Part shown: in pieces, positions 1 through 26,143 of the stretch
How the letters are laid out: each line of letters begins with the position of its first letter
Position numbering within the stretch: position 1 is the stretch's first letter
Source of the DNA: Chloroflexota bacterium
GTDB taxonomy: Bacteria > Chloroflexota > Anaerolineae > DTLA01
DNA: 64,000 nucleotides
Reading direction: 5' to 3'
Assembly (NCBI GenBank): GCA_014874485.1
Contig: JADBJK010000015.1
Span: forward strand, 55,955-119,954
Made by a program: the position numbers and the translations under genes
The notes under the pieces: model-generated
What the model was told of the DNA's origin: nothing
Database searches by the model: none
What the model saw: only the letters and a program-made list of their open reading frames with translations

Positions 1-678
1 GCGGTGAAGAAATTCGCCCAGTACAAGGTGGGGCGGCTGCCGGTGGTGAACGAGCATGGCGACCTGGTCGGCATCCTGACGGGCGGCGACATCACCCGCG
101 GCCTGCTGGAAGCCATCGGGCTGGACTATCACGCGGAGGAGATCAGCCGCTACCGTGCGCGACACATCTTTGAAGACATCGTATCGGACCAGACCGGCCT
201 GATCCTGCGCTACCACATCAAGCCGCGGGACTTCACCGGCGGGGGGAGCGCGTCCAGCAAGATCAAGCGGGCGCTGGATCGGCTGGGGGCCCCGCCGCTG
301 ATTCAGAGGCGGGTCGCCATCGCCGCCTACGAGGCGGAGATGAACCTGATTATCCATACGGACAACGGCGGCGAACTGATCGCGGAAATCCAGCCGGAAG
401 TCATCCGAATCGTCGCGACGGACAACGGCCCGGGCATCGCCGACATAGAGCAGGCCATGCAGCCCGGGTTCTCCACCGCGCCGAACTGGATTCGCGAACT
501 GGGGTTCGGGGCCGGCATGGGACTGGCGAACATCAAGAAATGCTCCGATTCCATGAAATTGGAGTCGCAGGTCGGCGTGGGCACGCGGCTGGAAATCGTC
601 ATCCGAATCCAGCCCGTCATGAGCAGCGGGAACGCCGCGCGACCCTCTGAAGGACAACAGAAACAGGAGACCTCGTGA
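1..678 (+). CDS. CBS-domain / histidine-kinase-like ATPase (HATPase_c, RsbW/anti-sigma-kinase-like) regulatory protein; probably 5'-truncated by the window edge
   Basis: The ORF at 4..678 has a CBS-like N-terminus (GRLPVVNEHGDLVGILTGGDI) followed by HATPase_c G1/G2 boxes (ATDNGPGI, GFGAGMGLANI). Only about one CBS repeat is present, so the gene likely continues upstream of the window. Confidence 0.6.
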   Translation, partial: AVKKFAQYKVGRLPVVNEHGDLVGILTGGDITRGLLEAIGLDYHAEEISRYRARHIFEDIVSDQTGLILRYHIKPRDFTGGGSASSKIKRALDRLGAPPLIQRRVAIAAYEAEMNLIIHTDNGGELIAEIQPEVIRIVATDNGPGIADIEQAMQPGFSTAPNWIRELGFGAGMGLANIKKCSDSMKLESQVGVGTRLEIVIRIQPVMSSGNAARPSEGQQKQETS

Positions 679-1031
679 TCGCACTAGCCGAGATTGTGCA
701 GAAACTCAACCTGGAAGTCGTGGGGAGCGCCGAGAATCTAGACCGCCGCGTCGTCGCCGGTTACGCGTCGGATTTGCTCAGTTGCGCCATGAACCGTGCC
801 AAGAAGGACTACGTCTGGGTTACGCTGCAGTCGCACGCCAACGTGGTCGCGGTGGCGAGCCTGCTGGACCTGGCCGCCGTCATCATCACCGAGGGCAACC
901 GCCCCGACGACGAGACCATCGCCCGCGCGGAGAGCGAAGGCGTCTGCCTGCTGCTCACGCCCAAGACGACGTTCACCGTCGTGGGCGAGTTGACGGCCCT
1001 CGGCGTCCGCGGCGAGCCGGAGCAGCCGTAA
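675..1031 (+). CDS. DRTGG-domain protein
   Basis: The 118-aa product is small and glycine-rich with an ...VVAGYASDLLSCAMN... core typical of DRTGG proteins. Its stop overlaps the upstream HATPase gene (ATGA coupling). Confidence 0.55.
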   Translation: MIALAEIVQKLNLEVVGSAENLDRRVVAGYASDLLSCAMNRAKKDYVWVTLQSHANVVAVASLLDLAAVIITEGNRPDDETIARAESEGVCLLLTPKTTFTVVGELTALGVRGEPEQP

Positions 1032-1048
1032 CGACGGCACGGGAGCCC

Positions 1049-1807
1049 ATGCTGCGGCCGATTCTGGCGGATTTGCACATTCACACAGTGCTCTCGGCGT
1101 GCGCCGAGGTGGAGATGATCCCGCCGCTCATCGTCCGGCGGGCGTGCCGCCTGGGGCTGGGCCTCATCGCGGTAACCGACCACAACGCTTGCGCCAACGC
1201 CGAGGCCGTCATACGCGCAGCCGAAGGGACCGGCCTGGCCGTGCTGCCGGGCATGGAACTCCAGACCCGCGAGGAGGTGCACCTGCTCTGCCTGTTTGAC
1301 ACGGTGGAGCAGAGCCTGGCGTGGCAGGCGGAGGTATGGAGCCTGCTGCCGCCGCTGGAGAACCGCGAGGAGTTCTTCGGCCCCCAGTACGTGGTGGACG
1401 CCGAAGGCCAATGGGTGCGCACCGAGGGGCGGCTCCTGGCGGCATCGGCGGACATCGCTCTGGAGCAGGCCATCGCCAGGGTGCACGCGCTGGGCGGGCT
1501 GGCGATACCGGCGCACGTGGACAGGCCGTCCTTCAGCCTGCTGGCGAACCTGGGCATGGTGCCGGCGAACCTCGGCGCGGACGCGCTGGAGGTTACGGCC
1601 CGGTTCCAGCCGGAGGCAGGTTTCGCCCAGTGGCCGGAGTTGCGCGGGTGGCCGCTTGTCGTGGACGGCGATGCGCATACGTTGAACGACATGCAGAACC
1701 GCACCCTGTTCAAGGTGGCTGCGCCGACCGTTCGCGAACTCTCACTAGCCCTTCGGGGCGCGGAAGGTCGCAAAATCACGGTGGACTGGCACCCAACGAA
1801 ATCGTAG
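1049..1807 (+). CDS. PHP-domain (polymerase/histidinol-phosphatase-like) metal-dependent phosphoesterase
   Basis: The product has an ADLHIHTVLSACA...VTDHN... PHP N-terminal histidine motif. The annotated start is the internal ATG at residue 90 of track ORF 782..1807; the upstream part of that ORF is a low-complexity Arg/Pro-rich artefact overlapping the DRTGG gene. Confidence 0.65.
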   Translation: MLRPILADLHIHTVLSACAEVEMIPPLIVRRACRLGLGLIAVTDHNACANAEAVIRAAEGTGLAVLPGMELQTREEVHLLCLFDTVEQSLAWQAEVWSLLPPLENREEFFGPQYVVDAEGQWVRTEGRLLAASADIALEQAIARVHALGGLAIPAHVDRPSFSLLANLGMVPANLGADALEVTARFQPEAGFAQWPELRGWPLVVDGDAHTLNDMQNRTLFKVAAPTVRELSLALRGAEGRKITVDWHPTKS

Positions 1808-1828
1808 AACTTCAAGGAGGAAAGTCGC

Positions 1829-2299
1829 ATGAGCCAACCTGAAACCCTGGATCTAGCACCGCTGGACGAAGTCATTGACGAATTCGCCGGGAAGAGTGGG
1901 GCCCTGATCCCAATCCTGCAACGGGCTCAGGACATCTTCGGCTATCTTCCGCCAGAGGTGCTCAAACACATCGCGGAGCGCACCCGCACACCCCTCAGCC
2001 AAGTGTATGGCGTGGTAACGTTCTACGCCCAGTTCTACCTGACGCGCCGCGGGAAGTACATCATCCGCCAGTGCGACGGGACCGCGTGCCACGTGCGCGG
2101 CGCGGCCAAGATCATTGACGCCGTGGAGCGCGAACTGGGCATCCGCGCGGGCGAGACCTCGCCCGACTACAAGTACACCTTTGAAGTCGTCTATTGTCTG
2201 GGTTCCTGCGGATTGTCGCCGGTGGCGGTCATCAACGACAAGGTGCACGGCCGCCTGACGCCGGAGCAGATGATCCGCACCATCCGTGAGTTGAAGTAG
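1829..2299 (+). CDS. hoxE: NAD(P)-linked hydrogenase diaphorase subunit HoxE (NuoE-like, thioredoxin-like [2Fe-2S])
   Basis: The 156-aa product has the NuoE/24-kDa subunit Cys pattern (CDGTACHVRG...CLGSCGLSP). An RBS (GGAGGAAAG) lies upstream. Confidence 0.8.
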   Translation: MSQPETLDLAPLDEVIDEFAGKSGALIPILQRAQDIFGYLPPEVLKHIAERTRTPLSQVYGVVTFYAQFYLTRRGKYIIRQCDGTACHVRGAAKIIDAVERELGIRAGETSPDYKYTFEVVYCLGSCGLSPVAVINDKVHGRLTPEQMIRTIRELK

Positions 2300-2301
2300 G
2301 C

Positions 2302-2856
2302 GTGCGAGAACTCTCCCTTCACGTGCTGGATGTGATGGAGAACGCCATTGAGGCAGGGGCCACGCGCATTGAGGTGCGCATTGACGAGGACCTGGGAGCG
2401 GATCGCTTGACCATAGAGGTTGCCGACAACGGGCGAGGGATGAGCAAGGAGATGACGCAGCGGGTTCTGGACCCCTTCTTCACGACGCGGAAGACGCGCC
2501 ACGTGGGGTTGGGGCTTCCGCTGTTCGCTGCGGCTGCCCGCCGCTGCGATGGCGACCTCACCATTGAGTCGGAGCCGGGAAAGGGGACGCGGGTCAGGGC
2601 CACGTTTCGGCACAGCCATATTGACCGGGCCCCGCTCGGCGATATGCCCTCGGCGCTCATGGCGGTTCTCCTGTCGGGGCGGCCCGTGGACCTGGCCTAC
2701 GTGCACCGTGTTGGCGAGGCCGAGTTCGCCTTTGACTCGGCGGAGGTCCGGCGCGAACTGGGCGAGGTCCCGCTGACGCATCCGGCGGTGCGCCAATGGC
2801 TGTGGCAGACACTGCGCGAAGGGGAGGAGAGCCTTCGCACCAAGCCGTCGGACTGA
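2302..2856 (+). CDS. Small stand-alone histidine-kinase-like ATPase (HATPase_c only)
   Basis: It has a GTG start, an N box (ENAIEAGAT), G1 (DNGRGM), G2 (GLGLPL) and GKGTRV. No sensor or DHp domain is present. Confidence 0.65.
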   Translation: MRELSLHVLDVMENAIEAGATRIEVRIDEDLGADRLTIEVADNGRGMSKEMTQRVLDPFFTTRKTRHVGLGLPLFAAAARRCDGDLTIESEPGKGTRVRATFRHSHIDRAPLGDMPSALMAVLLSGRPVDLAYVHRVGEAEFAFDSAEVRRELGEVPLTHPAVRQWLWQTLREGEESLRTKPSD

Positions 2857-2910
2857 TTTTCCAACCCATGCAGTGAGCAATGACAACCGGCAAAGCGAGG
2901 AGGTGGCAGA

Positions 2911-3294
2911 ATGCCCAAGATCAAGAGTTTGGAGGAACTCAAGAAGATTCGGGAGGAGGCGCAGAAAGACCTCAGAGTCCGCACCGAAACCGGCACCCGC
3001 ATCATCATCGGCATGGGCACGTGTGGCATTGCCGCCGGCGCGCGCGATGTGATGCACGCCATCCTCAACGAACTGGCGCGCAGGGACATTGAGGCCCATG
3101 TGGAGACGGTGGGATGCATCGGCATGTGCGCGAAGGAGCCCCTGGTGGACATTGAGCAGGCGGGAAAGCCACGGGTTACCTACGCCAACGTAACGCCCGA
3201 CATGGTGCCCCGCCTCATTGAAGAGCACCTGGTGAAGGGCCGCGTCGTCCAGGAGTGGGCGCTGGGCCGACTGGATTCCAAGGGCATCCAGTAG
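2911..3294 (+). CDS. Thioredoxin-like [2Fe-2S] ferredoxin (HndB-like)
   Basis: The 127-aa product has the IGMGTCGIAAGA...GCIGMCAKEP Cys motif. The same fold recurs at the N-terminus of both NuoF-like proteins in this window. Confidence 0.7.
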   Translation: MPKIKSLEELKKIREEAQKDLRVRTETGTRIIIGMGTCGIAAGARDVMHAILNELARRDIEAHVETVGCIGMCAKEPLVDIEQAGKPRVTYANVTPDMVPRLIEEHLVKGRVVQEWALGRLDSKGIQ

Positions 3295-3373
3295 GCGTGC
3301 TGGATTCTGAGACCGATACAACACCACCCATGAGCGTTTCACCGTAGACTGAGAAGACAAGGAGGAATCCGAT

Positions 3374-6300
3374 ATGGCCGAACCATTCTACAGGGCCAAC
3401 GTGCTGGTATGCGGCGGGACCGGATGCACGGCGTCCGGGTCGGCAGAGGTCATCACGGCCATGGAGGCGGAGATCAAGCGCCGCGGCCTGCAGAACGAGG
3501 TGCGGCTGGTGCAGACCGGCTGCCGCGGCTTCTGCGCCATGGGGCCTGTGATGATCGTTTACCCCGAAGGCATCTTCTACTGCCAGGTGCAGGCCAGCGA
3601 TGTGCCCACCATCGTGGAAGAGACCCTGGTCAAAGGGCGTGTCGTCCAGCGACTCACGTACCAGGAGCCGGAGACGCACAAGGCCCTGCCGTTCTACAAA
3701 GAGATTCCGTTCTACAGCAAGCAGATTCGCATTGCCCTGCGCAACTGCGGCATGATTGACCCCGAGAAGATAGAGGAGTACATCGCGCGGGGCGGCTACG
3801 AGGCGCTATCCAAGGCCCTGACCAGCATGACCCGCGAGGAGGTCATTGAGGAGGTCAAGCGGTCCGGGCTGCGCGGGCGAGGCGGTGCGGGCTTCCTCAC
3901 GGGCGTCAAGTGGGAGTTCACCGCCAAGGCCCCCGGCGACGTGAAGTACGTGGTGTGCAACGCCGACGAGGGCGACCCGGGCGCGTTCATGGACCGCTCC
4001 ATCTTGGAAGGCGACCCCCACAGCGTCATTGAGGGCATGATCATCTGCGGGTACGCCGTGGGCGCGAAAGAGGGGTACATCTACTGCCGCGCCGAGTACC
4101 CGCTGGCCATCAAGCGCCTGAAGACGGCCATCGCCCAGGCCGAGGAGTACGGCCTGCTGGGCGATCACATCATGGGCACCGACTTCAGTTTCCACCTGCA
4201 CATCAAGGAGGGCGCGGGCGCGTTCGTCTGCGGTGAGGAGACCGCGCTCATCGCGTCCATTGAGGGCCGCCGTGGCGAGCCGCGCCCCAGGCCGCCGTTC
4301 CCCGCCGTGTCGGGCCTGTGGGGCAAGCCCACCAACCTGAACAACGTCAAGAGTTACGCCAACATCCCGCAGATCATCGTCAACGGCGCCGAGTGGTTCA
4401 GCAACATCGGCGCGAAGCGAAGCCCGGGCACGGCCATCTTCGCGCTGACCGGCAAGGTGAACAACACCGGCCTGGTGGAAGTGCCCATGGGCATCACCCT
4501 GGGCGAGATCATCTTTGACATCGGCGGCGGCATCCCCAGAGGCAAGAAGTTCAAGGCCGTCCAGACCGGCGGGCCTCTTGGCGGCTGCATCCCGGCCCAG
4601 CACCTCAACGTCAAGGTGGACTTTGACTCGCTCAAGGAAGTGGGCGCGGTCATGGGTTCGGGCGGCATGATCGTCGTGGACGAAGACACCTGCATGGTGG
4701 AGTTCTCCAAGTTCTTCCTGACCTTCGCCCAGGCGGAATCGTGCGGCAAGTGCGTCCCCTGCCGCGTGGGCGGCAAGCGCATGCTGGAGATTCTCACCCG
4801 CATCACCGAGGGCAAGGGCAAACTGGAGGACCTGGACACCATCCGCGAGATCGCCAAGGGCATGGAGACCGGCGCGTTGTGCGCCCTGGGCCAGTTGACG
4901 CCCGGCCCGGTGATGGCCGCCCTGCGCTACTTTGAGGACGAGTTCCGCGCCCACATCCTGGACAAGGAATGCCCGGCCGGAACCTGCAAAGCGCTGGTGC
5001 GGGCGCGCTGCATCAACGCCTGCCCGTCCGAGGTGGACGTGCCGGCCTTCGTGGCGCTGACCGCCCAGGGGCGCTACCAGGAGGCGCTGGACATCCACCG
5101 CGAGCGCAACCCGTTCCCGCTCATCTGCGGGCGCGTGTGCCCGGCCTTCTGCGAGCAGAAGTGCCGCCGCGGCGACGTGGACGAGCCGGTGGCGCTGCGC
5201 CAGGTCAAGCGGTTCATGGCCGACCAGGAGAAGGACCATCCGTGGACGCCACCGAAGAAGGAAGGCCCCAAGGACAAGAAGGTGGCCGTCATCGGCGCGG
5301 GCCCCGCAGGGCTGACCGCGGCGCTGCGCCTGGCCCAGTTGGGCTATCCCGTTACCGTCTTTGAGAAACTGCCGGTTGCGGGCGGCATGATGGCGGTGGG
5401 CATCCCCGAATACCGCCTGCCGCGCGACATCCTGAACATTGAGATTGAGAACATCAAGCGGGCCGGGGTGGAGATTCGCCTGAACCAGGAGATGGGCCGC
5501 GACTTTACCATGGATGACCTGATGAACGGCATGGGCTACAGCGCCGTCGTGCTGGCCATCGGCGCCCACAAGAGCCGCAAACTGGGCATCCCGAACGAGG
5601 ACCTGCCCGGCGTGTACCACGGCGTGAATTTCCTGAAGGACGTGGCCCTGGGCAAGAAGCCGGACCTGAGGGGCAAGCGCGTGGCCGTCGTGGGCGGCGG
5701 CGCGGTTGCCGTGGACGCGGCGCGCACGGCCCTGCGGCTTGGCGCGAGCAAGGTGCATCTCATCTACCGCCGCACGCGGAGCGAGATGCCGGCCTGGGAA
5801 GAGGAAGTCCACGCCGCGGCGCTGGAAGGCATCCAGTTCCACTTCCTGACCAACCCGGTGGAGGTGATCGGAACCGACCACGTAACCGGCGTGAAACTCC
5901 AGGCGCAGCAGTTGGGCGAGTTTGACGCCAGCGGCCGCCGCAAGCCCGTCCCGATTGAGGGGTCCGAGTTCGTGCTGGACGTGGACCTGCTGATACCGGC
6001 CATCGGACAGGCGCTGGCGGTGGAGTGCCTGGACTCCTGCGGCGACATCAGTTTCAACCGCGACGGCACCATCACCGTCGGGCCGGACCTGGCGACGACC
6101 CGCGAGGGCGTCTTCGCGGCGGGCGACGCGGCCCTGGGGCCTGCCACCGTCGTGGAAGCCGTGGCCCAGGGCAACAAGGTGGCCGTGGCCGTGGATGCGT
6201 ACCTCAAGGGCCAGAAGGTGGAGCGGCCCAAGTACGTAACCGGGTACCACGAGGTGCCGCAGGTGTTCAACATGGACGACTACGCCGACGCCAAGCGGCC

Positions 6301-6481
6301 TCAGATGCCCGAATTGCCCGTTGAAGAGCGCATTTGCTGCTTTGACGAAGTGGAACTCGGGTTTGACGAAAAGACCGCCCGCGAAGAGTGCAAGCGTTGC
6401 CTGCGCTGCGACCTGGAATGGGTAGAGACCATGGGCGTGGAAGCGGTTACGCAGGCGGATAAAGACGCGGTCCCGGCATAG
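3374..6481 (+). CDS. hoxF: HoxF-like NAD(P)H-binding diaphorase subunit (NuoF 51-kDa homologue) fused C-terminally to a GltD/NfnB-like FAD-NAD(P)H oxidoreductase domain
   Basis: The 1035-aa product has an N-terminal thioredoxin-like 2Fe-2S domain and a NuoF core (GRGGAGFLTGVKWEF, CGKCVPCR 4Fe-4S). These are followed by a GltD-like 2x[4Fe-4S] region (CINACPSEVDVP...CGRVCPAFCEQKC), a Rossmann FAD/NAD(P) site (VAVIGAGPAGLTAA and VAVVGGGAVAVD) and a C-terminal Cys cluster (CKRCLRCD). The RBS is AAGGAGGAATCC. Confidence 0.8.
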   Translation: MAEPFYRANVLVCGGTGCTASGSAEVITAMEAEIKRRGLQNEVRLVQTGCRGFCAMGPVMIVYPEGIFYCQVQASDVPTIVEETLVKGRVVQRLTYQEPETHKALPFYKEIPFYSKQIRIALRNCGMIDPEKIEEYIARGGYEALSKALTSMTREEVIEEVKRSGLRGRGGAGFLTGVKWEFTAKAPGDVKYVVCNADEGDPGAFMDRSILEGDPHSVIEGMIICGYAVGAKEGYIYCRAEYPLAIKRLKTAIAQAEEYGLLGDHIMGTDFSFHLHIKEGAGAFVCGEETALIASIEGRRGEPRPRPPFPAVSGLWGKPTNLNNVKSYANIPQIIVNGAEWFSNIGAKRSPGTAIFALTGKVNNTGLVEVPMGITLGEIIFDIGGGIPRGKKFKAVQTGGPLGGCIPAQHLNVKVDFDSLKEVGAVMGSGGMIVVDEDTCMVEFSKFFLTFAQAESCGKCVPCRVGGKRMLEILTRITEGKGKLEDLDTIREIAKGMETGALCALGQLTPGPVMAALRYFEDEFRAHILDKECPAGTCKALVRARCINACPSEVDVPAFVALTAQGRYQEALDIHRERNPFPLICGRVCPAFCEQKCRRGDVDEPVALRQVKRFMADQEKDHPWTPPKKEGPKDKKVAVIGAGPAGLTAALRLAQLGYPVTVFEKLPVAGGMMAVGIPEYRLPRDILNIEIENIKRAGVEIRLNQEMGRDFTMDDLMNGMGYSAVVLAIGAHKSRKLGIPNEDLPGVYHGVNFLKDVALGKKPDLRGKRVAVVGGGAVAVDAARTALRLGASKVHLIYRRTRSEMPAWEEEVHAAALEGIQFHFLTNPVEVIGTDHVTGVKLQAQQLGEFDASGRRKPVPIEGSEFVLDVDLLIPAIGQALAVECLDSCGDISFNRDGTITVGPDLATTREGVFAAGDAALGPATVVEAVAQGNKVAVAVDAYLKGQKVERPKYVTGYHEVPQVFNMDDYADAKRPQMPELPVEERICCFDEVELGFDEKTAREECKRCLRCDLEWVETMGVEAVTQADKDAVPA

Positions 6482-6528
6482 CGCGGGCGCGATTCTACGC
6501 AACCAACGGAAAGGAGGCGACTTGCCCG

Positions 6529-8244
6529 ATGGCAACCGTCAACATCAAAATCAACGGACAACAGATTCAGGCGCGGGCGGGGGCCACGCTTCTGGAGGCG
6601 GCAAAAGAGGCGGGGATTGACATCCCCACCCTGTGCCACCACCCTGCCCTTGCCAACATCGGCGCGTGCCGCGTTTGCCTGGTGGAAGTGGCGAAGCAGC
6701 GCACACTCCAGCCCGCCTGCACCTTCCCCATCTCCGAGGGCATGGAAGTGGAGACCGAGTCGCCCAAGGCGGTGGAGGCGCGCAAGTTCGTCCTGGAGAT
6801 GCTCTTCTCCGAGCGCAATCACTACTGCATGTACTGCGAGATGAGCGGCGACTGCGAACTCCAGGCGCTGGCGTACCGCTACGGCCTGGACCACTGGACC
6901 TATCCCTCGCCGCACGCCAAGATGCCGGTGGACGGCACGCGCAAGTACTTCATCATGGATCACAACCGCTGCATCCTGTGCCGGCGCTGCATCCGTGCGT
7001 GCTCGGACCTGGTGGCGAACCACACGCTGGGCGTGCGCTTCCGCGGCGCCAAGACCATGATCAGCGCCGACATGGACGTGCCCTTCGGCGACTCCACGTG
7101 CGTGTCGTGCGGCACCTGCCTGCAGGTCTGCCCCACGGGCGCGCTGGTGGACCGCAAGAGCGCTTACATGGGCCGCGAGGTGCACGTAGAGCACACGGCC
7201 AGCGCATGCACGTTCTGCGCCGTGGGGTGCGGGACCAGCGTCGTTACACGCGCCGGGCATGTCCTGCGCGTGGAGGGCGACTGGGACGCACCCAACCAGG
7301 GCGTGCTGTGCGTAGCGGGGCGCTTTGAACCGCTCTACGACCGCCGCGAGCGGATCACCTCGCCCATGTTGCGCAAGGGCAACGGCCTTGTGCCCGTCTC
7401 CTGGGACGAGGCGCTGGGCGCCATCGCCGCCAAGGCGAAGGGCAACAGCGGCAAGAAGGCCGCGGCCTACGTTACCGGCAAGGCTCTCAACGATACGCTG
7501 GGCGAGTTCCTGAGGGTGTTCCAGGGGAAGATGCAGGCCACCGTTGGCACCGTGGAGCCGACGCTGGCGGACCTGGACCTGCCGGTGGGCGGCTCGCTGG
7601 CCGATGTGGACGCGGCCGACTGCATCCTGGTGGCGGGCGGCGATCCGCTGGCCACGCACCGCGTGCTCGGCTACCGCGTCAAGCGCGCCCTGGACAAAGG
7701 CGCTCGGCTGCTGGTGGTTACGGACAAGCCCAACGGCATGCTGCCCCTCGCGCACCGGAAGTTCGGCATGGCCCAGTTGGACGAGGCCGTGAAGGTCTGC
7801 CAGGGCAGCGCCGCGCCGGTGGTCATCTACGGTGGCGACCTGGACAAGGCCAGCGCCCGGAAACTGGCGACGCTGGTGGGCAAGGCCCGCTTCATCCCGC
7901 TGTTCCCCGCCAGCAACGGCTACCGAGCCAGGGAACTGGGTCTGAAGAACGGCTTCAGCGCCAATGGGCTCAAGGTGCTCTACCTGCTGTTGGGCGACGC
8001 AGAACTGCCCGACGAGGCCGTGAAGGAAGCGCGGCGGGCGGCATTCCTCGTCGTCCACGCCGCCTACAAGTCCGCGGCCACCGACGTGGCCGATGTGGTG
8101 CTGCCGGCTCCGCTGTGGTACGAGCAGGAGGGGAGTTTCACCGCCCTGGACGGCAGGAAAGTCGCCGTCAAGCCGGCGGTCGCCGCGCCCGAGGGTATGC
8201 TTGCCGAGGCCGCTGTCCTTGCCCGGCTGGCAGAGCGCCTGTAG
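6529..8244 (+). CDS. hoxU: HoxU-like iron-sulfur diaphorase subunit (NuoG 75-kDa homologue, extended C-terminus)
   Basis: The 571-aa product has an N-terminal 2Fe-2S ferredoxin fold (CHHPALANIGACRVC) and NuoG-type 4Fe-4S motifs (CILCRRCIRAC, CVSCGTCLQVCPTGA). It is longer than canonical HoxU because of a NuoG-like C-terminal domain. Confidence 0.75.
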   Translation: MATVNIKINGQQIQARAGATLLEAAKEAGIDIPTLCHHPALANIGACRVCLVEVAKQRTLQPACTFPISEGMEVETESPKAVEARKFVLEMLFSERNHYCMYCEMSGDCELQALAYRYGLDHWTYPSPHAKMPVDGTRKYFIMDHNRCILCRRCIRACSDLVANHTLGVRFRGAKTMISADMDVPFGDSTCVSCGTCLQVCPTGALVDRKSAYMGREVHVEHTASACTFCAVGCGTSVVTRAGHVLRVEGDWDAPNQGVLCVAGRFEPLYDRRERITSPMLRKGNGLVPVSWDEALGAIAAKAKGNSGKKAAAYVTGKALNDTLGEFLRVFQGKMQATVGTVEPTLADLDLPVGGSLADVDAADCILVAGGDPLATHRVLGYRVKRALDKGARLLVVTDKPNGMLPLAHRKFGMAQLDEAVKVCQGSAAPVVIYGGDLDKASARKLATLVGKARFIPLFPASNGYRARELGLKNGFSANGLKVLYLLLGDAELPDEAVKEARRAAFLVVHAAYKSAATDVADVVLPAPLWYEQEGSFTALDGRKVAVKPAVAAPEGMLAEAAVLARLAERL

Positions 8245-8278
8245 CAGCCGTGTAACGAGGATAAAAGGAGGATAATCC

Positions 8279-8818
8279 ATGGCGAAAGTCAAGGTTGCAA
8301 CAGATTGGCTGGCCGCGTGCGCAGGGTGCCACATGTCCGTGCTGGACATGGACGAGCGGCTCGTCCAACTGCTGGACAAGATAGAACTCACGTCCACGCC
8401 CATCACCGACCTGAAGCACCCACCGAAGGAGGGCGTTACGGTCGGGATTCTCACGGGCGCTATCTCCAACACGACCAACATTGAGGTCGCCAAGCAGATG
8501 CGCGAGCGCTGCCAGATTCTCATCGCGCTGGGCGACTGCGCGGTGTTCGGCGGCATCGTAACCATGCGCAACTTCTTTGACATGAACGAGGCCCTGAAAC
8601 GCGCCTACGTGGAGACCGAAAGCACCGTGGACGGCAAAATCCCCTGCTCGGAGGAACTGGGGAGGCCGGTGCGGGTGTGCGCGGTCAACCAGGTGGTCAA
8701 GGTGGACATCCACATTCCGGGATGCCCGCCGTCGCCGGACGCCATCTACTACGCCCTGTCCGAGTTGTTGGAGGGCCGCATCCCCGTCCTGACCGGCGAC
8801 AACCTGAAGTATGACTGA
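8279..8818 (+). CDS. hoxY: [NiFe] hydrogenase small subunit, NAD-reducing type (HoxY)
   Basis: The 179-aa product carries CAGCHMS, GDCAVFGG and GCPP motifs for the proximal 4Fe-4S cluster. The RBS is AAGGAGGATAA. Confidence 0.85.
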   Translation: MAKVKVATDWLAACAGCHMSVLDMDERLVQLLDKIELTSTPITDLKHPPKEGVTVGILTGAISNTTNIEVAKQMRERCQILIALGDCAVFGGIVTMRNFFDMNEALKRAYVETESTVDGKIPCSEELGRPVRVCAVNQVVKVDIHIPGCPPSPDAIYYALSELLEGRIPVLTGDNLKYD

Positions 8819-8868
8819 CGGTCATGCCCGCCAGGTCCAGGATTTGACCCTAGACAAGGAGCGCAACC

Positions 8869-10290
8869 ATGCAAAAGATCACGATAGAACCCGTAACGCG
8901 AATTGAGGGCCACGCCAAGGTTACCATCCACCTGAACGACGAGGGCAAGGTGGAGCGGGCCTTCTTCCACGTGAACGAGTGGCGTGGGTTTGAGAAGTTC
9001 AGCGAGGGGCGGCCCTTCTTTGAGATGGTTCAGATCACCCCGCGCATCTGCGGCATTTGCCCGGTGAGCCATCACCTGGCGTCGGCCAAGGCGTGCGACC
9101 GCGTCGCGGGGGTCGAACCGCCCAGGACGGCCAAACTCCTGCGCGAACTGATGCACATGGGGCAGTTCATCCAGTCCCACTCCATGCACTTCTTTGAACT
9201 GGCGGGGCCAGACCTGCTGCTGGGGTTTGACGCGGACCCCGCCATCCGCAACGTGGTGGGCATCGTCCAGGCGAACCCCGACCTGGCGCTGAAGGCGGTG
9301 CGCCTGCGCGGGTTCGGCCAGGACATCATCAAGCGCCTGGGCGGCAAGCGCGTGCACCCGGTCTTCGCCGTGCCCGGCGGCGTCAACGCGCCCCTGTCCG
9401 TCAAGGACCGCGACGCCATCCTGAGCCAGGTGGACGAGATGACCGAGGTCATCAAGACCGGCATCGCCATCGGCAAGCAGTGGTACGAGGCCAACATGGA
9501 CCTCGTCAACCAGTTCGCCGTGTTCCCCTCGTCCTACATGGGGCTGGTGGACGAGGAGGGCGGCCTGCAACTGTACGAAGGCAAGGTGCGGCTGGTGGAC
9601 AAGGACGGCCGGAAACTGGAGGAGTTTGACGCCCAGGACTACCTGACGTACATCGGCGAGCACGTGGAAGACTGGTCGTACCTGAAGTTCCCCTTCTACC
9701 GCAAGATGGGCTGGCCCAACGGCACGTACCGCGTTGGCCCGCTGGGGCGGCTGAACGCTGCTACCAAGATCAACACGCCCATGGCCAACGAGGAGTTCAA
9801 GGTCTGGAAGTCCATCAACGGCGGCAAGCCGGTGGAAGGCACCCTGTGGTTCCACTACGCCCGCCTGATAGAGGACCTGTACGCCATGGAGCGCGTCCGC
9901 GAGATTCTGGAGGACCCCGACATCCTGTCCACGGACATCGTCGCGGATTCCACGGGGTTCGTGGGCCAGGGCGTCGGGTGCGTGGAGGCTCCGCGCGGGA
10001 CTCTGTTCCACCACTACCAGACCGACGCCAACGGCATGCTGACCAAGGTCAACCTCATCGTCGCCACAGGCCACAACAACTGGGCGATGAGCAAGTCGGT
10101 GGAGATGGTGGCCAAGGCGTTCGTGGACGGCACCAAGTTGACGGAAGGGATGCTGAACCGCGTGGAGGCGGCCATCCGCGCCCACGACCCGTGCCTGTCG
10201 TGCTCTACCCACGCCGTCGGGGCCATGCCCATCGTGATTGAGATGTACGGCCCGGATGGCGCACTGGTGCACCGCCTGACCCGCGACTAG
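8869..10290 (+). CDS. hoxH: [NiFe] hydrogenase large subunit, NAD-reducing type (HoxH)
   Basis: The N-terminal Ni-binding motifs RIEGH and RICGICPVSH are present. The C-terminal DPCLSCSTH is followed by a 24-aa extension, the substrate for endopeptidase cleavage. Confidence 0.9.
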   Translation: MQKITIEPVTRIEGHAKVTIHLNDEGKVERAFFHVNEWRGFEKFSEGRPFFEMVQITPRICGICPVSHHLASAKACDRVAGVEPPRTAKLLRELMHMGQFIQSHSMHFFELAGPDLLLGFDADPAIRNVVGIVQANPDLALKAVRLRGFGQDIIKRLGGKRVHPVFAVPGGVNAPLSVKDRDAILSQVDEMTEVIKTGIAIGKQWYEANMDLVNQFAVFPSSYMGLVDEEGGLQLYEGKVRLVDKDGRKLEEFDAQDYLTYIGEHVEDWSYLKFPFYRKMGWPNGTYRVGPLGRLNAATKINTPMANEEFKVWKSINGGKPVEGTLWFHYARLIEDLYAMERVREILEDPDILSTDIVADSTGFVGQGVGCVEAPRGTLFHHYQTDANGMLTKVNLIVATGHNNWAMSKSVEMVAKAFVDGTKLTEGMLNRVEAAIRAHDPCLSCSTHAVGAMPIVIEMYGPDGALVHRLTRD

Positions 10291-10521: not shown

Positions 10522-10563
10522 GCAGACCTCCGAGGGCCTTCCCGACCTCGGAGGTCTGCTTTT
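10522..10563 (+). terminator. Rho-independent terminator downstream of hoxH
   Basis: A 14-bp perfect stem (GCAGACCTCCGAGG...CCTCGGAGGTCTGC) is followed by a CTTTT tract. Confidence 0.6.
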
Positions 10564-10589
10564 GACGCCCTGGCCCCGTGGGATACAAT
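10562..10589 (+). promoter_or_regulatory. Sigma70-like promoter for the hoxW-hyp operon (TTGACG-N16-TACAAT)
   Basis: The hexamers lie immediately after the terminator T-tract, 58 nt upstream of hoxW. Confidence 0.4.
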
Positions 10590-10646: not shown

Positions 10647-11132
10647 ATGAGACGGACCCTGGTCATCGGATACGGGAACCCCTACCGCCGCGACGACGGC
10701 GTGGCGTTGCACGTCGCCAACCTCTTGCGGGCGGAGCAGGGGCTGCGACCTCTGGCCCTGGACGAAGACGGCCTGGATGCGTGCGGCCATCCCCTGGACA
10801 CGGTGGTGCTCCACCAGTTGCTGCCCGAAATCGCGCCCATGCTGGCCGACTACGACCTGGTCGTGTTCGTGGATGCCCACACCGGCGTAATACCGGATGA
10901 CGTCCGCGTGCTGCCCGTGCAGGAGGAGTACGGCTTCCAGGCGGTTACCCATCACATGAGCCCGGGCATGATGCTGGCGCTGGCGCGGGCAGCGCGGGGT
11001 CGGGCGCCGGATGCCGCGCTGGTCTCCATTCGGGGCGAGGACTTTGATTTCGGCGAGGGCCTGTCGGCGGGGTGCAAGGCTCGCGCGGATGCGGCCGCCC
11101 GCGCCATCCTGGACATGGCCGGCAGGGAGTAG
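10647..11132 (+). CDS. hoxW: Hydrogenase maturation endopeptidase (HoxW/HycI family)
   Basis: The product has the GYGNPYRRDDGVALHV signature (GxGNxxxxDDGxG) and is 161 aa long. Confidence 0.85.
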   Translation: MRRTLVIGYGNPYRRDDGVALHVANLLRAEQGLRPLALDEDGLDACGHPLDTVVLHQLLPEIAPMLADYDLVVFVDAHTGVIPDDVRVLPVQEEYGFQAVTHHMSPGMMLALARAARGRAPDAALVSIRGEDFDFGEGLSAGCKARADAAARAILDMAGRE

Positions 11133-11138
11133 GTCGCC

Positions 11139-11480
11139 GTGCACGAACTGCCCGTTACCGAGCAAATCCTCAAGGTCGTGCTGGATCACGCGCGCAAGGC
11201 GGAGGCGCACCGCGTCGTGCACGTCAACCTCGTCATCGGCGACCTGACCACGTTCGTGGACGAGAGCATCCAATTCTACTTTGATTTCCTGTCGCGCGGG
11301 ACCGAGGCGGAGGGCGCGACCCTGCACATCCGCCGCATTCCGGCCCGCGTGCGGTGTCATGCCTGCGGCGGCGAGTTCGCGCCCGACGGCGTGGACTGGC
11401 GCTGCCCCCACTGCGGCGGCCTGGGCGGGGAAGTGCTCGCGGGCCGCGAGTCGTACATAGAGAGCATTGAGGTGGAATAG
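11139..11480 (+). CDS. hypA: Hydrogenase nickel insertion protein HypA
   Basis: The N-terminal MHE motif and the Zn site CHACGG...CPHCGG are present; the product is 113 aa. Confidence 0.85.
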   Translation: MHELPVTEQILKVVLDHARKAEAHRVVHVNLVIGDLTTFVDESIQFYFDFLSRGTEAEGATLHIRRIPARVRCHACGGEFAPDGVDWRCPHCGGLGGEVLAGRESYIESIEVE

Positions 11481-11485
11481 CCCCC

Positions 11486-12151
11486 ATGAAGAAAGTGGAA
11501 GTCGTAACCGACATCATGAGTGCCAACGACCAGATCGCCCAGGAGAACGCCGAAACCCTCCGGGCGCATGGCATCCTCACGGTGAACCTGATGGCATCGC
11601 CCGGGGCCGGCAAGACCAGCCTCATCCTGGAGACCGCGCGGGCGCTTGACGGCCGCCTGCGCCTGGGCGTGATTGAGGGCGACGTGGCCTCGCGCATTGA
11701 CGCGGACAAGGTCGCCGCCGCGGGGATTCCCGTGGTGCAGATCAACACCGGCGGCGCGTGCCACCTGGACGCGCCCATGATCCGCCAGGCGCTCCGCGCG
11801 CTCCCGCTGGACGAGATAGACCTGCTCATCGTGGAAAACGTCGGCAACCTCATCTGCCCGGTGGAGTTTCGCCTGGGCGAGACGCTGCGCGTCATGATCG
11901 CCAGCGTGCCCGAAGGCCACGACAAGCCCTACAAGTACCCGGGCATCTTCACGGCAGTGGAGGCCGTCGTCATCAACAAGATGGATTTGGCCCCCTACGT
12001 GGACTTTGACCTGGGCGCGCTGCACGAGGCCATACGGGGCATGAACCCGCGCGCCGAAATCTTTGAGGTCTCCTGCCGCACGGGCGAAGGCATTGGCCGA
12101 TGGGCCGAATGGCTCTGGGCGCAGTGGCAGGCGTATCGGCCGGCGAAGTAG
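11486..12151 (+). CDS. hypB: Hydrogenase nickel incorporation GTPase HypB
   Basis: The product has a P-loop (ASPGAGKTS) and a CH metal motif (GGACHLD), and is 221 aa long. Confidence 0.85.
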   Translation: MKKVEVVTDIMSANDQIAQENAETLRAHGILTVNLMASPGAGKTSLILETARALDGRLRLGVIEGDVASRIDADKVAAAGIPVVQINTGGACHLDAPMIRQALRALPLDEIDLLIVENVGNLICPVEFRLGETLRVMIASVPEGHDKPYKYPGIFTAVEAVVINKMDLAPYVDFDLGALHEAIRGMNPRAEIFEVSCRTGEGIGRWAEWLWAQWQAYRPAK

Positions 12152-12172
12152 GGGGAGAGGGCGGTCCCGGAC

Positions 12173-14560
12173 ATGGCCTCGGTTGTCGCCAATCGGTTCA
12201 AGGTAACCGGCGTGGTGCAGGGGGTGGGTTTCCGCCCCTTTGTGTACGGCCTGGCGGTGGGGCTGGGGCTGCGCGGCTGGGTCATCAACACGTCGTCGGG
12301 CGTGGTGATTGAGGTGGAAGGCCCGCCCGATGCCCTGGATGCCTTCGCGCGCGACCTGGTGGCGAAGGCCCCGCCCGTGGCGCGCATAGAGACCGTGCAG
12401 CGGGAGGAGATTCCGCCCAACGGCTGGGAGCGGTTTGAAATCCGCGAGAGCCGGGCCGAGGCTGGGTACGTGCTCATCTCGCCGGACATCGCCACCTGCC
12501 CCGAATGCCTGCGCGAACTGTTTGATCCCAACGACCGCCGCTACCGCTATCCGTTCATCAACTGCACCAACTGCGGGCCGCGTTTCACCATCATCGCCGA
12601 CGTGCCTTACGACCGGCCCCTGACCACCATGGCCGCGTTCCAAATGTGCCCGGAATGCCAGGCCGAGTACGATGACCCGCTGAACCGCCGATTCCACGCG
12701 CAGCCCAACGCCTGCCCCGTGTGCGGGCCGCGGGTGTGGCTTGTGCCCGCTTCGGCGCAGGACGCCGAGGCGCTGACCCCGCCCGCGGGCGACCCGGCCA
12801 ACGCCGAGGTGCTCGCCGAGGCAGCGCGCTTGCTGCGGGGAGGCGCCATCCTCGCCATCAAGGGCCTGGGCGGGTTCCACCTGGCCTGCGATGCGACCAA
12901 CCCCGACGCAGTGCGCACGCTGCGGGAACGCAAGCGCCGCCCGGCGAAGCCCTTGGCGGTGATGATGGCCTCGCTGGACGAGGTGCGCCAGCATTGCGAG
13001 ATCACGCCCGACGAGGAGGCGCTCCTGACCTCGCGCCAGTGCCCCATCGTCCTGCTGGAGTGGAAGCGCGACTCCACAGTTGTGGAGGAGGTGGCGCCGA
13101 ACAACCGCTACCTGGGCGTGATGCTCCCCTACACGCCGCTGCACCATATTCTGCTCCGCGACGCCGGGCGGCCGCTGGTCATGACGAGCGGCAACCTGTC
13201 GGAGGAGCCTATCGCGCAGGACAACGAGGAGGCCTGGCGTCGGCTGCGCGGCCTGGCCGATTGGTTTCTGCTCCACAACCGGGCCATCTACGCCCGCTAC
13301 GATGACAGCGTCTGGTTTGTGCCGCGCGTCCCCGACGGCAAGGCGGGTGCCGAGTCGGTGCCCCAGCCGCTGCGCCGCTCGCGGGGCTACGCGCCGTATC
13401 CCGTGCGCCTGCCCTTCCGCGCCCGCACGGTGCTGGCCACCGGCCCGGAACTCAAGAACACCTTCTGCATCACCCGCGACGAGCATGCCTTCGTTAGCCC
13501 CCACATCGGCGACATGGAGAACCTGGAGACGCTGGAGCACTACGAGACGGCCATGGGCCTCTACGAGCGGCTGTTCCGCCTGCGGCCTGATGCGATAGCC
13601 TGCGACCTGCACCCCGACTACCTGGCGACGCGCTACGCCCACGAGCGGGCCGAGCGGGAGCGCCTGCCCCTCATCGGCGTGCAGCACCACCACGCCCACA
13701 TCGCGGCGTGCATGGTGGACAACGGTATCACCGAGCCGGTCATCGGCGTGGCCCTGGACGGCACGGGGTACGGCCTGGACGGGCGAATCTGGGGCGGCGA
13801 GTGGCTGGTCGCCGACCTGCGCGGGTTCCGCCGCGCCGCGTGGCTGGAGCCGCTCCCGCTCCCCGGCGGCGACGCGGGCATCCGCAACCCGTGCCGCATC
13901 GCGTATGCGTACCTGCATGCGCTGTTCGGCGAAGTCCCCGCGCTGCCCTTCCTGGCGCAGATGGACGAGGCCGAAATCGCCGCCGTGCAGCGGCAGGTGG
14001 AGCGCGGCCTGAACACCGTTCTGACCACGTCCTGCGGCCGGCTGTTTGACGCCGTCGCAGCGATGGCCGGCGGGCGGGGCCGCGTTACCTACGAGGCGCA
14101 GGCGGCCATTGAGATGGAGATGGCATCGGAGGGCGACGAGGGCGACCCCTACGGGTACTTCTTCCGCTGGGCGGAGCCGCTCGCCTGGGGGAACACGGAT
14201 GCCTTGCCCCCGCTGGCCTGCGCCTTTGAGGTCGCCCTGAAGCCGCTGCTGGCGGGCGTCGTGCGCGATGTCCAGGCCGGGCGGATGCTGGGCGAAGTGG
14301 GCGGGCGCTTCCACCGCACGCTGGCGAACATGATCGCCGACCTGTGCTGCATGATCGCGCAGGGCACCGGCCTCGCGACGGTGGCCCTGTCGGGCGGGTG
14401 CTTCCAGAACCGCCTGCTGCTGGAACAGTCGGTGGGCGAACTCCGACGGCGCGGGCTGCGCGTGCTGCTGCACCGCCAGGTTCCGGCCAACGACGGCGGC
14501 GTGTCGCTGGGCCAGGCGGCCATCGGCCACTTTGCCCTTGAGGAGGGGCGGGCGCGATGA
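12173..14560 (+). CDS. hypF: Carbamoyltransferase HypF
   Basis: It contains an acylphosphatase domain (VQGVGFRPFVY), two CxxC...CxxC zinc fingers, and YrdC and Kae1-like domains, for 795 aa in total. Confidence 0.9.
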   Translation: MASVVANRFKVTGVVQGVGFRPFVYGLAVGLGLRGWVINTSSGVVIEVEGPPDALDAFARDLVAKAPPVARIETVQREEIPPNGWERFEIRESRAEAGYVLISPDIATCPECLRELFDPNDRRYRYPFINCTNCGPRFTIIADVPYDRPLTTMAAFQMCPECQAEYDDPLNRRFHAQPNACPVCGPRVWLVPASAQDAEALTPPAGDPANAEVLAEAARLLRGGAILAIKGLGGFHLACDATNPDAVRTLRERKRRPAKPLAVMMASLDEVRQHCEITPDEEALLTSRQCPIVLLEWKRDSTVVEEVAPNNRYLGVMLPYTPLHHILLRDAGRPLVMTSGNLSEEPIAQDNEEAWRRLRGLADWFLLHNRAIYARYDDSVWFVPRVPDGKAGAESVPQPLRRSRGYAPYPVRLPFRARTVLATGPELKNTFCITRDEHAFVSPHIGDMENLETLEHYETAMGLYERLFRLRPDAIACDLHPDYLATRYAHERAERERLPLIGVQHHHAHIAACMVDNGITEPVIGVALDGTGYGLDGRIWGGEWLVADLRGFRRAAWLEPLPLPGGDAGIRNPCRIAYAYLHALFGEVPALPFLAQMDEAEIAAVQRQVERGLNTVLTTSCGRLFDAVAAMAGGRGRVTYEAQAAIEMEMASEGDEGDPYGYFFRWAEPLAWGNTDALPPLACAFEVALKPLLAGVVRDVQAGRMLGEVGGRFHRTLANMIADLCCMIAQGTGLATVALSGGCFQNRLLLEQSVGELRRRGLRVLLHRQVPANDGGVSLGQAAIGHFALEEGRAR

Positions 14561-16651: not shown

Positions 16652-16673
16652 GGCCCACAGGCCCGCGCTCACC

Positions 16674-16702
16674 TTGACGCGGCCCGCATTTGGTCGTATA
16701 AT
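16674..16702 (+). promoter_or_regulatory. Strong sigma70-like promoter (TTGACG-N17-TATAAT) for the fds operon
   Basis: The consensus hexamers have ideal spacing, about 190 nt upstream of fdsG. Confidence 0.55.
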
Positions 16703-19210: not shown

Positions 19211-19241
19211 CCACGGTTCTCGGATGGAAGGAGACGCAGAC

Positions 19242-25340: not shown

Positions 25341-25370
25341 ATGTCAGACATCAGACAAAGGGGTGTGTGG

Positions 25371-26111: not shown

Positions 26112-26143
26112 GACAAAAACAACTATTCTGAAAGGAGAGACGT

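Follow-up and report, generated by a model that had tools for sequence, protein, structure and literature searches.

A [NiFe] hydrogenase locus of a Chloroflexota bacterium with a GltD cassette fused to a bifurcating-type HydB

Gene content of the hydrogenase locus

We analyzed a 64,000-nucleotide stretch of DNA from a Chloroflexota bacterium (GenBank assembly GCA_014874485.1, contig JADBJK010000015.1, positions 55,955 to 119,954; hereafter "the window"), which begins with a [NiFe] hydrogenase locus whose HydB subunit carries an unusual C-terminal half. Genes at positions 1 to 10290 were read on the + strand, and the order of their domains was checked by Pfam scan. Ten genes were found, all on the + strand, with intergenic spacing ranging from a 4-bp overlap to 79 bp:

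4 to 678, + strand: CBS-pair and SpoIIAB-like GHKL kinase/ATPase, C-terminal 224 amino acids (aa) (Pfam CBS, HATPase_c, HATPase_c_2)
675 to 1031, + strand: DRTGG-domain protein, 118 aa (Pfam DRTGG, 31.6 bits; Hpr_kinase_N, 27.1 bits)
1049 to 1807, + strand: PHP-family phosphoesterase, 252 aa (Pfam PHP, 32.7 bits; a gene of equal length on contig L161, see below)
1829 to 2299, + strand: HydC/BfuC, NuoE-like, 156 aa, with the C1 [2Fe-2S] site (Pfam 2Fe-2S_thioredx, E 1e-49)
2302 to 2856, + strand: orphan GHKL ATPase, 184 aa (Pfam HATPase_c, 76 bits, its sole domain)
2911 to 3294, + strand: HydD, thioredoxin-like [2Fe-2S] protein, 127 aa (Pfam 2Fe-2S_thioredx, 27.4 bits)
3374 to 6481, + strand: hydB, 1035 aa (Pfam Complex1_51K, E 7e-47, SLBB and NADH_4Fe-4S, followed by Fer4_20 and Pyr_redox_2)
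3374 to 5002, + strand: HydB/BfuB core, residues 1 to 543 of hydB (match to chain 7T2R_B)
5003 to 6481, + strand: GltD cassette joined to HydB, residues 544 to 1035 (Pfam Fer4_20, 78.8 bits; Pyr_redox_2, 135.7 bits)
6529 to 8244, + strand: HydA/BfuA, NuoG-like, 571 aa (Pfam Fer2_4, NADH-G_4Fe-4S_3, Fer4, Molybdop_Fe4S4, Molybdopterin)
8279 to 8818, + strand: HydS, [NiFe] small subunit, 179 aa (Pfam Oxidored_q6)
8869 to 10290, + strand: HydL, [NiFe] large subunit, 473 aa (Pfam NiFeSe_Hases)

The smallest spacing lies at the DRTGG gene, whose start (675) overlaps the preceding stop codon by 4 bp. No terminator-like site was seen on the + strand inside 1 to 10290; the sole + strand terminator-like hairpin (10538 to 10556) and a promoter-like site (10562 to 10589) both lie past the stop codon of the large subunit gene. 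Related loci (designated by L numbers) were taken from scans of genome and metagenome collections, which are samples and not censuses, so that locus counts given throughout are lower bounds. The gene order of the window was found again in L002, L004, and L161. On contig L161, which encodes a large subunit identical to that of the window and keeps the gene order of 4 to 10290, the shared genes are preceded by an extra DRTGG gene (120 aa) and a complete 325-aa CBS/HATPase gene, and a 279-bp gap separates this operon start from an unrelated SMR-type gene upstream. Given the short gene spacing, the lack of internal terminators, and the conserved synteny, we infer that the block is one operon encoding a cytoplasmic Bfu-type [NiFe] hydrogenase of HydABCSL architecture.

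These results bear on an earlier sequence-only reading of the same DNA. Its gene order, from CBS/HATPase to the [NiFe] large subunit, was borne out by Pfam domain for domain on the + strand, with E values far too low for chance matches, and the large subunit motifs that it had called intact, RICGICPVSH (C61, C64) and DPCLSCSTH (C442, C445), are both present in the 473-aa translation. The genes are contiguous, as it had said, but the first (4 to 678) is interrupted at its 5' end by the start of the window, and the true start of the block lies upstream, as the extra DRTGG and full CBS/HATPase genes on L161 indicate. Two of its labels needed revision. The gene called hoxU encodes a 571-aa NuoG/HydA-like protein rather than a HoxU of ∼240 aa, and "NuoF" describes only the NuoF-like core (residues 1 to 543) of a 1035-aa protein whose GltD half had been missed.

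The subunits other than HydB resemble those of solved bifurcating hydrogenases. HydC matched T. kivui HydC best in the PDB (8A6T_C, 175 bits), followed by its A. mobile counterpart (7T2R_C, 156 bits), and the four cysteines in RQCDGTACH...YCLGSCG correspond to the C1 [2Fe-2S] ligand set. The best PDB match of HydA was 7T2R_A (290 bits, covering residues 3 to 335); Pfam placed in it the [2Fe-2S] A1 site, a His-type [4Fe-4S] cluster, a 2x[4Fe-4S] domain, a Molybdop_Fe4S4 cluster, and an inactive molybdopterin-like domain. Pfam assigned its C-terminal half to the molybdopterin type and gave no match to an [FeFe]-hydrogenase catalytic domain, although no search aimed at H-cluster motifs was made. 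HydS aligned end to end with 7T2R_E (189 bits), which has the same length of 179 aa, and contains the proximal [4Fe-4S] cluster only. HydL was closest to 7T2R_D (598 bits), ahead of MvhA (428 bits) and Hydrogenophilus HoxH (417 bits); a match to Pfam PF27537 (HoxH) is on record for it, and it is ∼50% identical to the large subunits of HoxEFUYH-like metagenome loci. Its 25-aa C-terminal extension would be removed by a maturation protease. No structural subunit reached an NCBIfam equivalog cutoff, which leaves classification at the level of Pfam. For all five structural subunits, the best or second-best solved relative was either the A. mobile NiFe-HydABCSL complex or an FeFe HydABC, and homologues of HydA, HydB, and HydC lie contiguous with the [NiFe] small and large subunits, the combination that characterizes NiFe-HydABCSL. 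By these comparisons, HydL and HydS are the predicted H2 site and HydA the predicted Fe-S wire.

A GltD cassette at the C terminus of HydB

Over residues 5 to 543, HydB aligned without gaps to A. mobile HydB (7T2R_B, 870 bits, 68% identity), and it scored lower against the HydB subunits of bifurcating FeFe enzymes from A. woodii (767 bits) and T. kivui (703 bits). The Hydrogenophilus HoxF chain was not among the best 60 PDB matches, a list that ends near 304 bits. The core retains the ligands of the N-terminal [2Fe-2S] cluster B5 (C13, C18, C50, C54), the AFM motif (A204/F205/M206) of the flavin mononucleotide (FMN)/NADH site, the B1 [4Fe-4S] ligands (C457, C460, C463, C503), and the Zn/"B2" ligands (C440, H527, C533, C538). 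A fifth A. mobile Zn/B2 ligand, C476, is T478 in the window, and Cys/Thr is a semi-conserved alternative at that position (PMC8880783). The site is now regarded as Zn (PMC11829005); its His occurs in virtually all BfuB proteins and is missing from nonbifurcating homologues (PMC9304861). Across 125 homologues, B1 and Zn/B2 ligands were retained in 57/57 fused and 38/38 ferredoxin-type sequences, and the B5 cysteines varied in other lineages. HydB and HydC thus carry, by ligand content, the conserved FMN/B1/C1 "flavobicluster" core, including the Zn/B2 hinge site. One flavin-pocket residue differs from the common form: the motif GGPSG reads GGPLG in the window (residue 402, codon 4577 to 4579), as it does in 7 of the 57 fused proteins including this one, with Ser in the other 50 and in most ferredoxin-type HydBs.

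Similarity to 7T2R_B ends at residue 543, and Pfam detected no Fer4 dicluster (B3/B4) in the window protein. What follows is a cassette of the GltD kind. Searched against the PDB with residues 520 to 1035, it matched the GltD parts of NfnA of NfnABC (9N5U_A, 410 bits), 9BOV_A (400 bits), and StnC (8OH5_C, 351 bits) ahead of the bifurcating NfnB (4YLF_B, 320 bits). It contains two predicted [4Fe-4S] sites (C546, C550, C585, C589, C593, C597, C1009, and C1012, plus K612), a Rossmann fold for flavin adenine dinucleotide (FAD) (GAGPAG, 641 to 646), an NADPH-type Rossmann fold (GGGAVAVD...YRRT), and the C-terminal tail CKRCLRC. The cluster cysteines, GAGPAG, GGGAVAVD, and YRRT were invariant in 16 fused homologues of 70 to 97% identity. 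The stretch IYRRTRSEMPA is near-identical to StnC and NfnB, a motif similarity from which alone a preference for NADPH is read. As in StnC and NfnA, the cassette is permuted, with the N-terminal segment of NfnB (...F.EV.LG...EA.RCLxC) at the extreme C terminus (ERICCFDEVELGFDEKTAREECKRCLRC). K612 aligns with K170 and R681 with R239 of StnC; NfnB has Glu at the K170 position. StnC C114 is replaced by Val556 in the window protein, and some StnC homologues are reported to have the same exchange. We considered an NfnB-type bifurcating FAD in the GltD half and regard it as unlikely, because the cluster ligand is Lys as in Stn and not Glu.

The site of the fusion is fixed. The junction H-x5-C-x4-C-x7-C-x3-CP had the same length in 56/56 full-length fused proteins from many phyla, so that the first GltD cluster would be tethered near the Zn hinge. 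The cassette starts 7 residues past the last Zn ligand, where B3/B4 normally begins. In HydABC, it is through the B3/B4 domain that electrons from the mobile HydC cluster reach ferredoxin (PMC10021017). By alignment, then, the ferredoxin-type C-terminal domain of HydB has been exchanged for a predicted Stn-type GltD cassette in the B3/B4 position. An assembly or frameshift artefact was ruled out as the source of the 1035-aa open reading frame (ORF) by the occurrence of >120 independent clusters of ∼1035-aa proteins and by the single junction length. Since the window also encodes an ordinary ferredoxin-domain HydB (see below), the fused protein appears to be a distinct paralogue and not a degraded copy.

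Comparison with characterized enzymes places the locus in a known class with an exchanged part. The A. mobile NiFe-HydABCSL (7T2R/7T30) is a purified, tightly coupled bifurcating hydrogenase solved in 2022 (PMC8880783) and has been placed in the Bfu family as "NiFe-Bfu" (PMC9304861). It shares with the window the five subunits, the gene order, hisK and hydD between hydC and hydB, and the B1, B5, Zn/B2, and C1 ligands. A bifurcating-type diaphorase on a [NiFe] site, which the sequence-only reading had presented as unprecedented, is therefore not new. However, the A. mobile HydB (597 aa) ends in the 2x[4Fe-4S] B3/B4 domain where the window protein has a 490-aa GltD cassette; HydA is 692 aa in A. 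mobile versus 571 aa here and alignable only over the first ∼335 residues; and the window operon adds the CBS-kinase, DRTGG, and PHP genes. Sporomusa ovata StnABC (8OH5) and Caldicellulosiruptor NfnABC (9N5U) contain a cassette of the same kind, with a C-x3-CP start, a ...RCLxC end, the Lys cluster ligand, and the conserved Arg, on a common BfuBC core. In contrast to the window, that cassette sits inside BfuA, between the [2Fe-2S] domain and the NuoG part, whereas here it forms the C terminus of BfuB; Stn/NfnABC BfuB retains B3/B4 and reduces ferredoxin, and those enzymes have no hydrogenase module, whereas the window has a NiFe module. The fusion had been noted once before in the literature that we found, for a trimeric [FeFe] hydrogenase of Vallitalea guaymasensis, in which a GltD domain on HydB replaces the 2x[4Fe-4S] domain and a second NAD(P)H site was suggested (PMC6163223, 2018). 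That enzyme is known from genome annotation, and its partner is an H-cluster HydA, not HydA-HydS-HydL. In the literature, we found no report of a NiFe enzyme with a GltD-fused HydB. Together, these comparisons make it very probable that the enzyme belongs to the NiFe-Bfu class and carries a functional NADP(H) module.

Distribution of the fusion and neighboring genes

The fused form occurs commonly in metagenomes. In the protein database, >120 clusters of ∼1035-aa proteins showed 71 to 97% identity to the window HydB, with named clusters from Chloroflexi/Anaerolineae, Deltaproteobacteria/Thermodesulfobacteriota, Terriglobia, and Actinobacteria; the nearest (97%) is from a "Chloroflexi bacterium" metagenome-assembled genome (MAG). 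Genome loci came from contigs at one genome per species (80 loci retained), and the metagenome scan was queried with the large subunit. Among the matches listed, the fusion occurred in 49/80 retained genome loci, with carriers that include Armatimonadota, Nitrospiraceae, Verrucomicrobiota, Bacteroidales, Spirochaetaceae, Omnitrophota, Acidobacteriota, Planctomycetaceae, and a Lokiarchaeon. The partners of the fused HydB varied. An H-cluster HydA lies immediately 3' of it in at least 17 genome loci, NiFe HydS/HydL lie downstream in at least 5 (L003, L004, L028, L047, L048), a Mo/W formate-dehydrogenase-like BfuA accompanies it in L012, L016, L030, and L036, and a HoxU-like protein with a Glu_synthase-domain protein does so in L037 and L042. 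The fused HydB thus lies upstream of NiFe HydS/HydL in at least 5 genome and at least about 10 metagenome loci, and in most of these HydA lies between them. Metagenome relatives with ≥50% identity in the large subunit had three types of upstream region: GltD-fused HydB, HydA, HydS, and HydL (at least about 10 loci, e.g., L098, L103, L107, L109, L117, L127); ferredoxin-type HydB with the same three subunits (at least 11 loci, often with the kinase/DRTGG/PHP set); and HoxEFUYH-like clusters (at least about 20 loci).

Several of these loci depart from the common plan. In the NiFe-Bfu metagenome loci L083, L091, L094, L099, and L100, tandem HydC-HydB pairs precede hydA-hydS-hydL; one HydB carries the ferredoxin domain, the other lacks any C-terminal domain, and the second copies form a deep clade of their own. 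In L037 (Lokiarchaeon, 13042 to 15339) and L042 (13832 to 16195), two further genes stand behind HydC-HydB::GltD, one for a HoxU-like 2Fe-2S protein and one for a product of ∼527 aa that matches a glutamate-synthase FMN domain, an arrangement that suggests a NuoEF-driven glutamate-synthase-like enzyme, including one in an Asgard archaeon; L044, L006, and L034 resemble it by ORF layout. In L047 (13058 to 15875) and L048 (3137 to 5970), from Bryobacteraceae and Anaerolineaceae MAGs, a ∼240-aa HoxU-like protein and then HydS-HydL lie behind the fused HydB, a predicted Hox-style wire combined with the GltD fusion.

A neighbor-joining (NJ) tree of 125 HydB/HoxF N-terminal cores (541 columns) grouped the window HydB with L001 to L004 and L103 (bootstrap 57 to 60%), all of them GltD-fused and either NiFe-linked or on truncated contigs. 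Neither the A. mobile clade (98%) nor a Hox-like clade of 16 members (67%) included this group, the support for its separation from the Hox-like clade being only moderate (57 to 67%). With the 870-bit match to 7T2R_B, this position agrees with the earlier view that the diaphorase half is of HydABC/Bfu type and not canonical Hox; HydB did not fall within the canonical HoxF clade. Subunit sizes, PDB ranking, and the tree together ruled out a canonical Hox assignment. Synechocystis HoxEFUYH and Hydrogenophilus HoxFUYH (5XF9) share with the window the NiFe motifs, a single-cluster small subunit, and a NuoE/F-type flavin module. However, canonical HoxF (∼530 to 580 aa) has no C-terminal extension and HoxU has ∼240 aa, against 1035 and 571 aa for the window counterparts. 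Fitch parsimony on NJ trees gave 11 to 15 changes of C-terminal state, some "none" states being contig truncations, which suggests repeated exchange of that state. Since the junction is invariant, a single origin of the fusion would fit, and the pattern is most simply read as one fusion spread among hydB genes by recombination or transfer; the weakly supported tree allows no firm conclusion.

The CBS/HATPase protein resembles SpoIIAB-type serine kinases: it matched the NCBIfam anti-sigma F factor model TIGR01925 below its cutoff (52.6 bits for 4 to 678; range 51 to 53 bits), and full-length homologues lie at L002:6320-7351 and L161:839-1816. CBS and DRTGG domains bind adenosine-type ligands in other proteins, and PHP is a phosphoesterase fold. 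The 184-aa HATPase protein had no HisKA/DHp domain in the Pfam scan; it is the counterpart of A. mobile "hisK," and the position is likewise filled in FeFe and NiFe Bfu loci. HydD between hisK and hydB is conserved across related loci, and both genes belong to the A. mobile operon but lie outside the holoenzyme (PMC9304861). The order CBS-HATPase, DRTGG, PHP, HydC, HATPase, HydD, HydB recurred in many Clostridia FeFe HydABC loci (L055, L058, L064, L070, L076) and in ferredoxin-type NiFe-Bfu loci (L083, L091, L099, L100, L115). Among loci with at least 4.5 kb upstream, a CBS-HATPase match was present at 13/17 ferredoxin-type FeFe, 3/4 ferredoxin-type NiFe, 1/8 GltD-type FeFe, and 1/4 GltD-type NiFe loci. 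It was found at none of the 16 canonical Hox-like loci (all 16 counted, with no upstream minimum), nor were the DRTGG or PHP genes, so this set is not a common neighbor of ordinary Hox operons. The sequence-only reading had further held that the kinase/phosphoesterase module has no assigned function in any hydrogenase, and our literature search agreed: for DRTGG or PHP/histidine kinase genes with hydrogenases it returned annotation lists only, by keyword searching, which is not proof of absence. A Halanaerobium genome paper, for example, lists the same genes in an FeFe operon and gives no function (PMC4237134). From their domains only, the CBS/SpoIIAB-like kinase, the DRTGG proteins, the PHP protein, and the orphan GHKL ATPase probably adjust the enzyme, or how strongly it is expressed, to the adenylate or redox state.

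Directly downstream of the hydrogenase genes lies a [NiFe] maturation set (10647 to 16651):

10647 to 11132, + strand: hydrogenase maturation endopeptidase, 161 aa (NCBIfam TIGR00072, 67.8 bits, cutoff 47.45)
11139 to 11480, + strand: hypA (Pfam HypA)
11486 to 12151, + strand: hypB (Pfam cobW/HypB)
12173 to 14560, + strand: hypF (Pfam HypF domains)
14557 to 15654, + strand: hypD (Pfam HypD)
within 15356 to 16651, + strand: hypE (Pfam AIRS/AIRS_C)

The 161-aa gene after hydL had no Pfam match even at E 0.01, and TIGR00072 settled its identity; most related loci likewise have a homologue of this functionally linked protease behind hydL. Between hypF and hypD, no gene of hypC size was identified.

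Right behind the hyp genes is a second Bfu-type cluster (16891 to 21953, + strand). It consists of a HydC-like gene (16891 to 17358), an ordinary 619-aa HydB (17351 to 19210, + strand) that keeps the C-terminal 2x[4Fe-4S] ferredoxin domain, and a NuoG/formate-dehydrogenase alpha gene in two same-frame ORFs (19137 to 20294 and 20307 to 21953). The in-frame TGA that splits them (20292 to 20294) is flanked as NVDHCARL*HSSTV and falls where FdhA usually has its selenocysteine; the sequence past it folded no better than shuffled sequence when examined for a hairpin like a selenocysteine insertion element. In the NJ tree, this second HydB grouped with GltD-fused, formate-dehydrogenase-linked HydBs (61%). 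In L004, from a close Anaerolineales relative, the NiFe operon is succeeded by a second set of HydC-HydD-HydB::GltD genes (12791 to 17573), and the HydA-like ORF behind that set ends with DHCART, again at the FdhA selenocysteine position. The formate-dehydrogenase-linked HydB is thus GltD-fused in the L004 organism and of the ferredoxin-domain form in the window.

Elsewhere in the window, a GntR/UTRA regulator gene stands ahead of a tandem pair of aspartate/ornithine carbamoyltransferase paralogues (26144 to 27214 and 27330 to 28373) and an amino-acid (carbamate) kinase family gene (28408 to 29352), the group spanning 25245 to 29352 on the + strand. A single 874-aa ORF (49711 to 52335, + strand) joins Mur ligase domains (residues 57 to 468, MurF-like) to a complete alanine racemase (514 to 873). 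Two tRNA-Ala genes on the + strand (45564 to 45639 and 45832 to 45905; anticodons CGC and GGC), 190 bp apart, were the only Rfam or ARAGORN matches within the 64-kb window.

Possible electron routes through the fused enzyme

As a whole, the best explanation of the locus is a NiFe-Bfu enzyme with an NADP(H) module in the B3/B4 slot, a reading that we consider about evenly poised between right and wrong. The enzyme most likely couples H2 to NAD(H) and NADP(H). In the proposed route, electrons from H2 would pass from HydL through HydS and HydA to B1/FMN; one electron pair would leave FMN as NADH, and the other would travel by the mobile HydC C1 cluster to the two GltD clusters in the B3/B4 slot and on through FAD to NADPH. 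The net reaction would be 2 H2 + NAD+ + NADP+ ↔ NADH + NADPH + 2 H+, with NADP(H) taking the role of ferredoxin wholly or partly. This particular path, in which NADP(H) takes the ferredoxin slot, is tentative, and we put it somewhat short of an even chance. A ferredoxin-independent Bfu enzyme, which would split H2 between NAD+ and NADP+ or confurcate NADH and NADPH to H2, is possible but rather unlikely. The in vivo couples lie at about -280 mV (NAD) and about -380 mV (NADP) (PMC9304861) and average near -330 mV; by our own Nernst estimate, coupling would matter at H2 of ∼10^-3 atm or below, in either direction.

Several points weigh against such a route. Where the GltD domain sits in the complex cannot come from sequence alone, the specificity for NADPH over NADH follows from motifs only, and co-transcription of the block is deduced from its layout. 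The literature yielded no biochemistry for any HydB::GltD enzyme. In Stn/NfnABC, the cassette is a mid-potential input wired to B1 and not a low-potential exit (PMC10482914, PMC11829005). Canonical HoxEFUYH itself bifurcates, according to a 2026 bioRxiv preprint (10.64898/2026.06.25.734504), and since it does so without B3/B4, ferredoxin could still be a substrate here. Finally, at high H2 no coupling is needed, because reduction of NAD+ and of NADP+ are both exergonic.

The foremost alternative, unlikely in our judgment but with real claims, is a Hyd/Nfn hybrid in which the GltD module gives electrons a second mid-potential way in or out, as it does in StnABC/NfnABC, and ferredoxin stays the low-potential partner. 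Ferredoxin would then dock either at HydC C1/HydB B5, in line with the proposal for HoxEFUYH, or, on the model of NfnB, at the GltD clusters; bifurcation would run from H2 or NADPH to NAD+ and ferredoxin, and direct transfer between H2 and NADP+ would also be possible. The cassette is indeed nearest to Stn/NfnABC, down to the Lys ligand that marks a nonbifurcating mid-potential FAD module, and Hox bifurcates without B3/B4. Bfu cores with two catalytic modules also exist, as in the bifunctional C. autoethanogenum enzyme (PMC9304861), and one and the same HydC-HydB::GltD unit serves partners of the FeFe, formate-dehydrogenase-like, and glutamate-synthase-like kinds, as would suit a general NADP(H) port. 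However, the cassette begins 7 residues past the Zn hinge, in the B3/B4 position, whereas Stn has it within BfuA; no extra ferredoxin-binding domain is evident, and HydD is outside the A. mobile holoenzyme.

An uncoupled, "Hox-like" hydrogenase of dual specificity, reducing NAD+ at FMN and NADP+ at FAD independently, is improbable. Under standard conditions, the two nucleotide couples are higher in potential than H2, and nonbifurcating HydB relatives exist (PMC9304861), but the core Bfu ligands (Zn/B2 His and Cys, B1, AFM) are complete in 57/57 fused proteins, HydC is present, and the nearest solved relatives are all tightly coupled bifurcating enzymes. Least probable are two separate enzymes, with HydC and HydB::GltD forming an NADH:NADP+ transhydrogenase-like flavoprotein and HydA-HydS-HydL a hydrogenase with another partner: the HydC-HydB::GltD pair is seen with many different downstream genes, but in the solved homologue HydA touches HydB and alone connects HydS to FMN (PMC8880783), the genes keep the order hydC-...-hydB-hydA-hydS-hydL at short distances, and no further donor or acceptor domain is obvious in HydA.

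The combination of a NiFe site with a bifurcating-type diaphorase has been known since 2022; what the window adds is a widespread, uncharacterized HydB::GltD fusion, here NiFe-linked. The fused variant probably escaped the published Bfu census, because the domain filter used there demanded a 4Fe-4S ferredoxin-type domain in BfuB (PMC9304861). The conserved kinase/DRTGG/PHP set is an unstudied candidate for posttranslational control of bifurcating hydrogenases. Bfu enzymes are defined by three substrates, namely, NAD(H), ferredoxin, and a variable third partner, and the mechanism of their low-potential branch is debated. The exchange of the ferredoxin domain for an NADP(H) module at a fixed junction is a natural experiment on that branch. 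If the ferredoxin-independent reading is true, it would represent a new type of reaction for flavin/Fe-S bifurcation, present in >15 phyla and with NiFe, FeFe, formate-dehydrogenase-like, and glutamate-synthase-like partners. Should NADP(H) stand in for ferredoxin, H2 would be tied directly to both pyridine-nucleotide pools, which would be relevant to redox engineering and to the H2 thresholds of syntrophic fermenters such as Anaerolineae.

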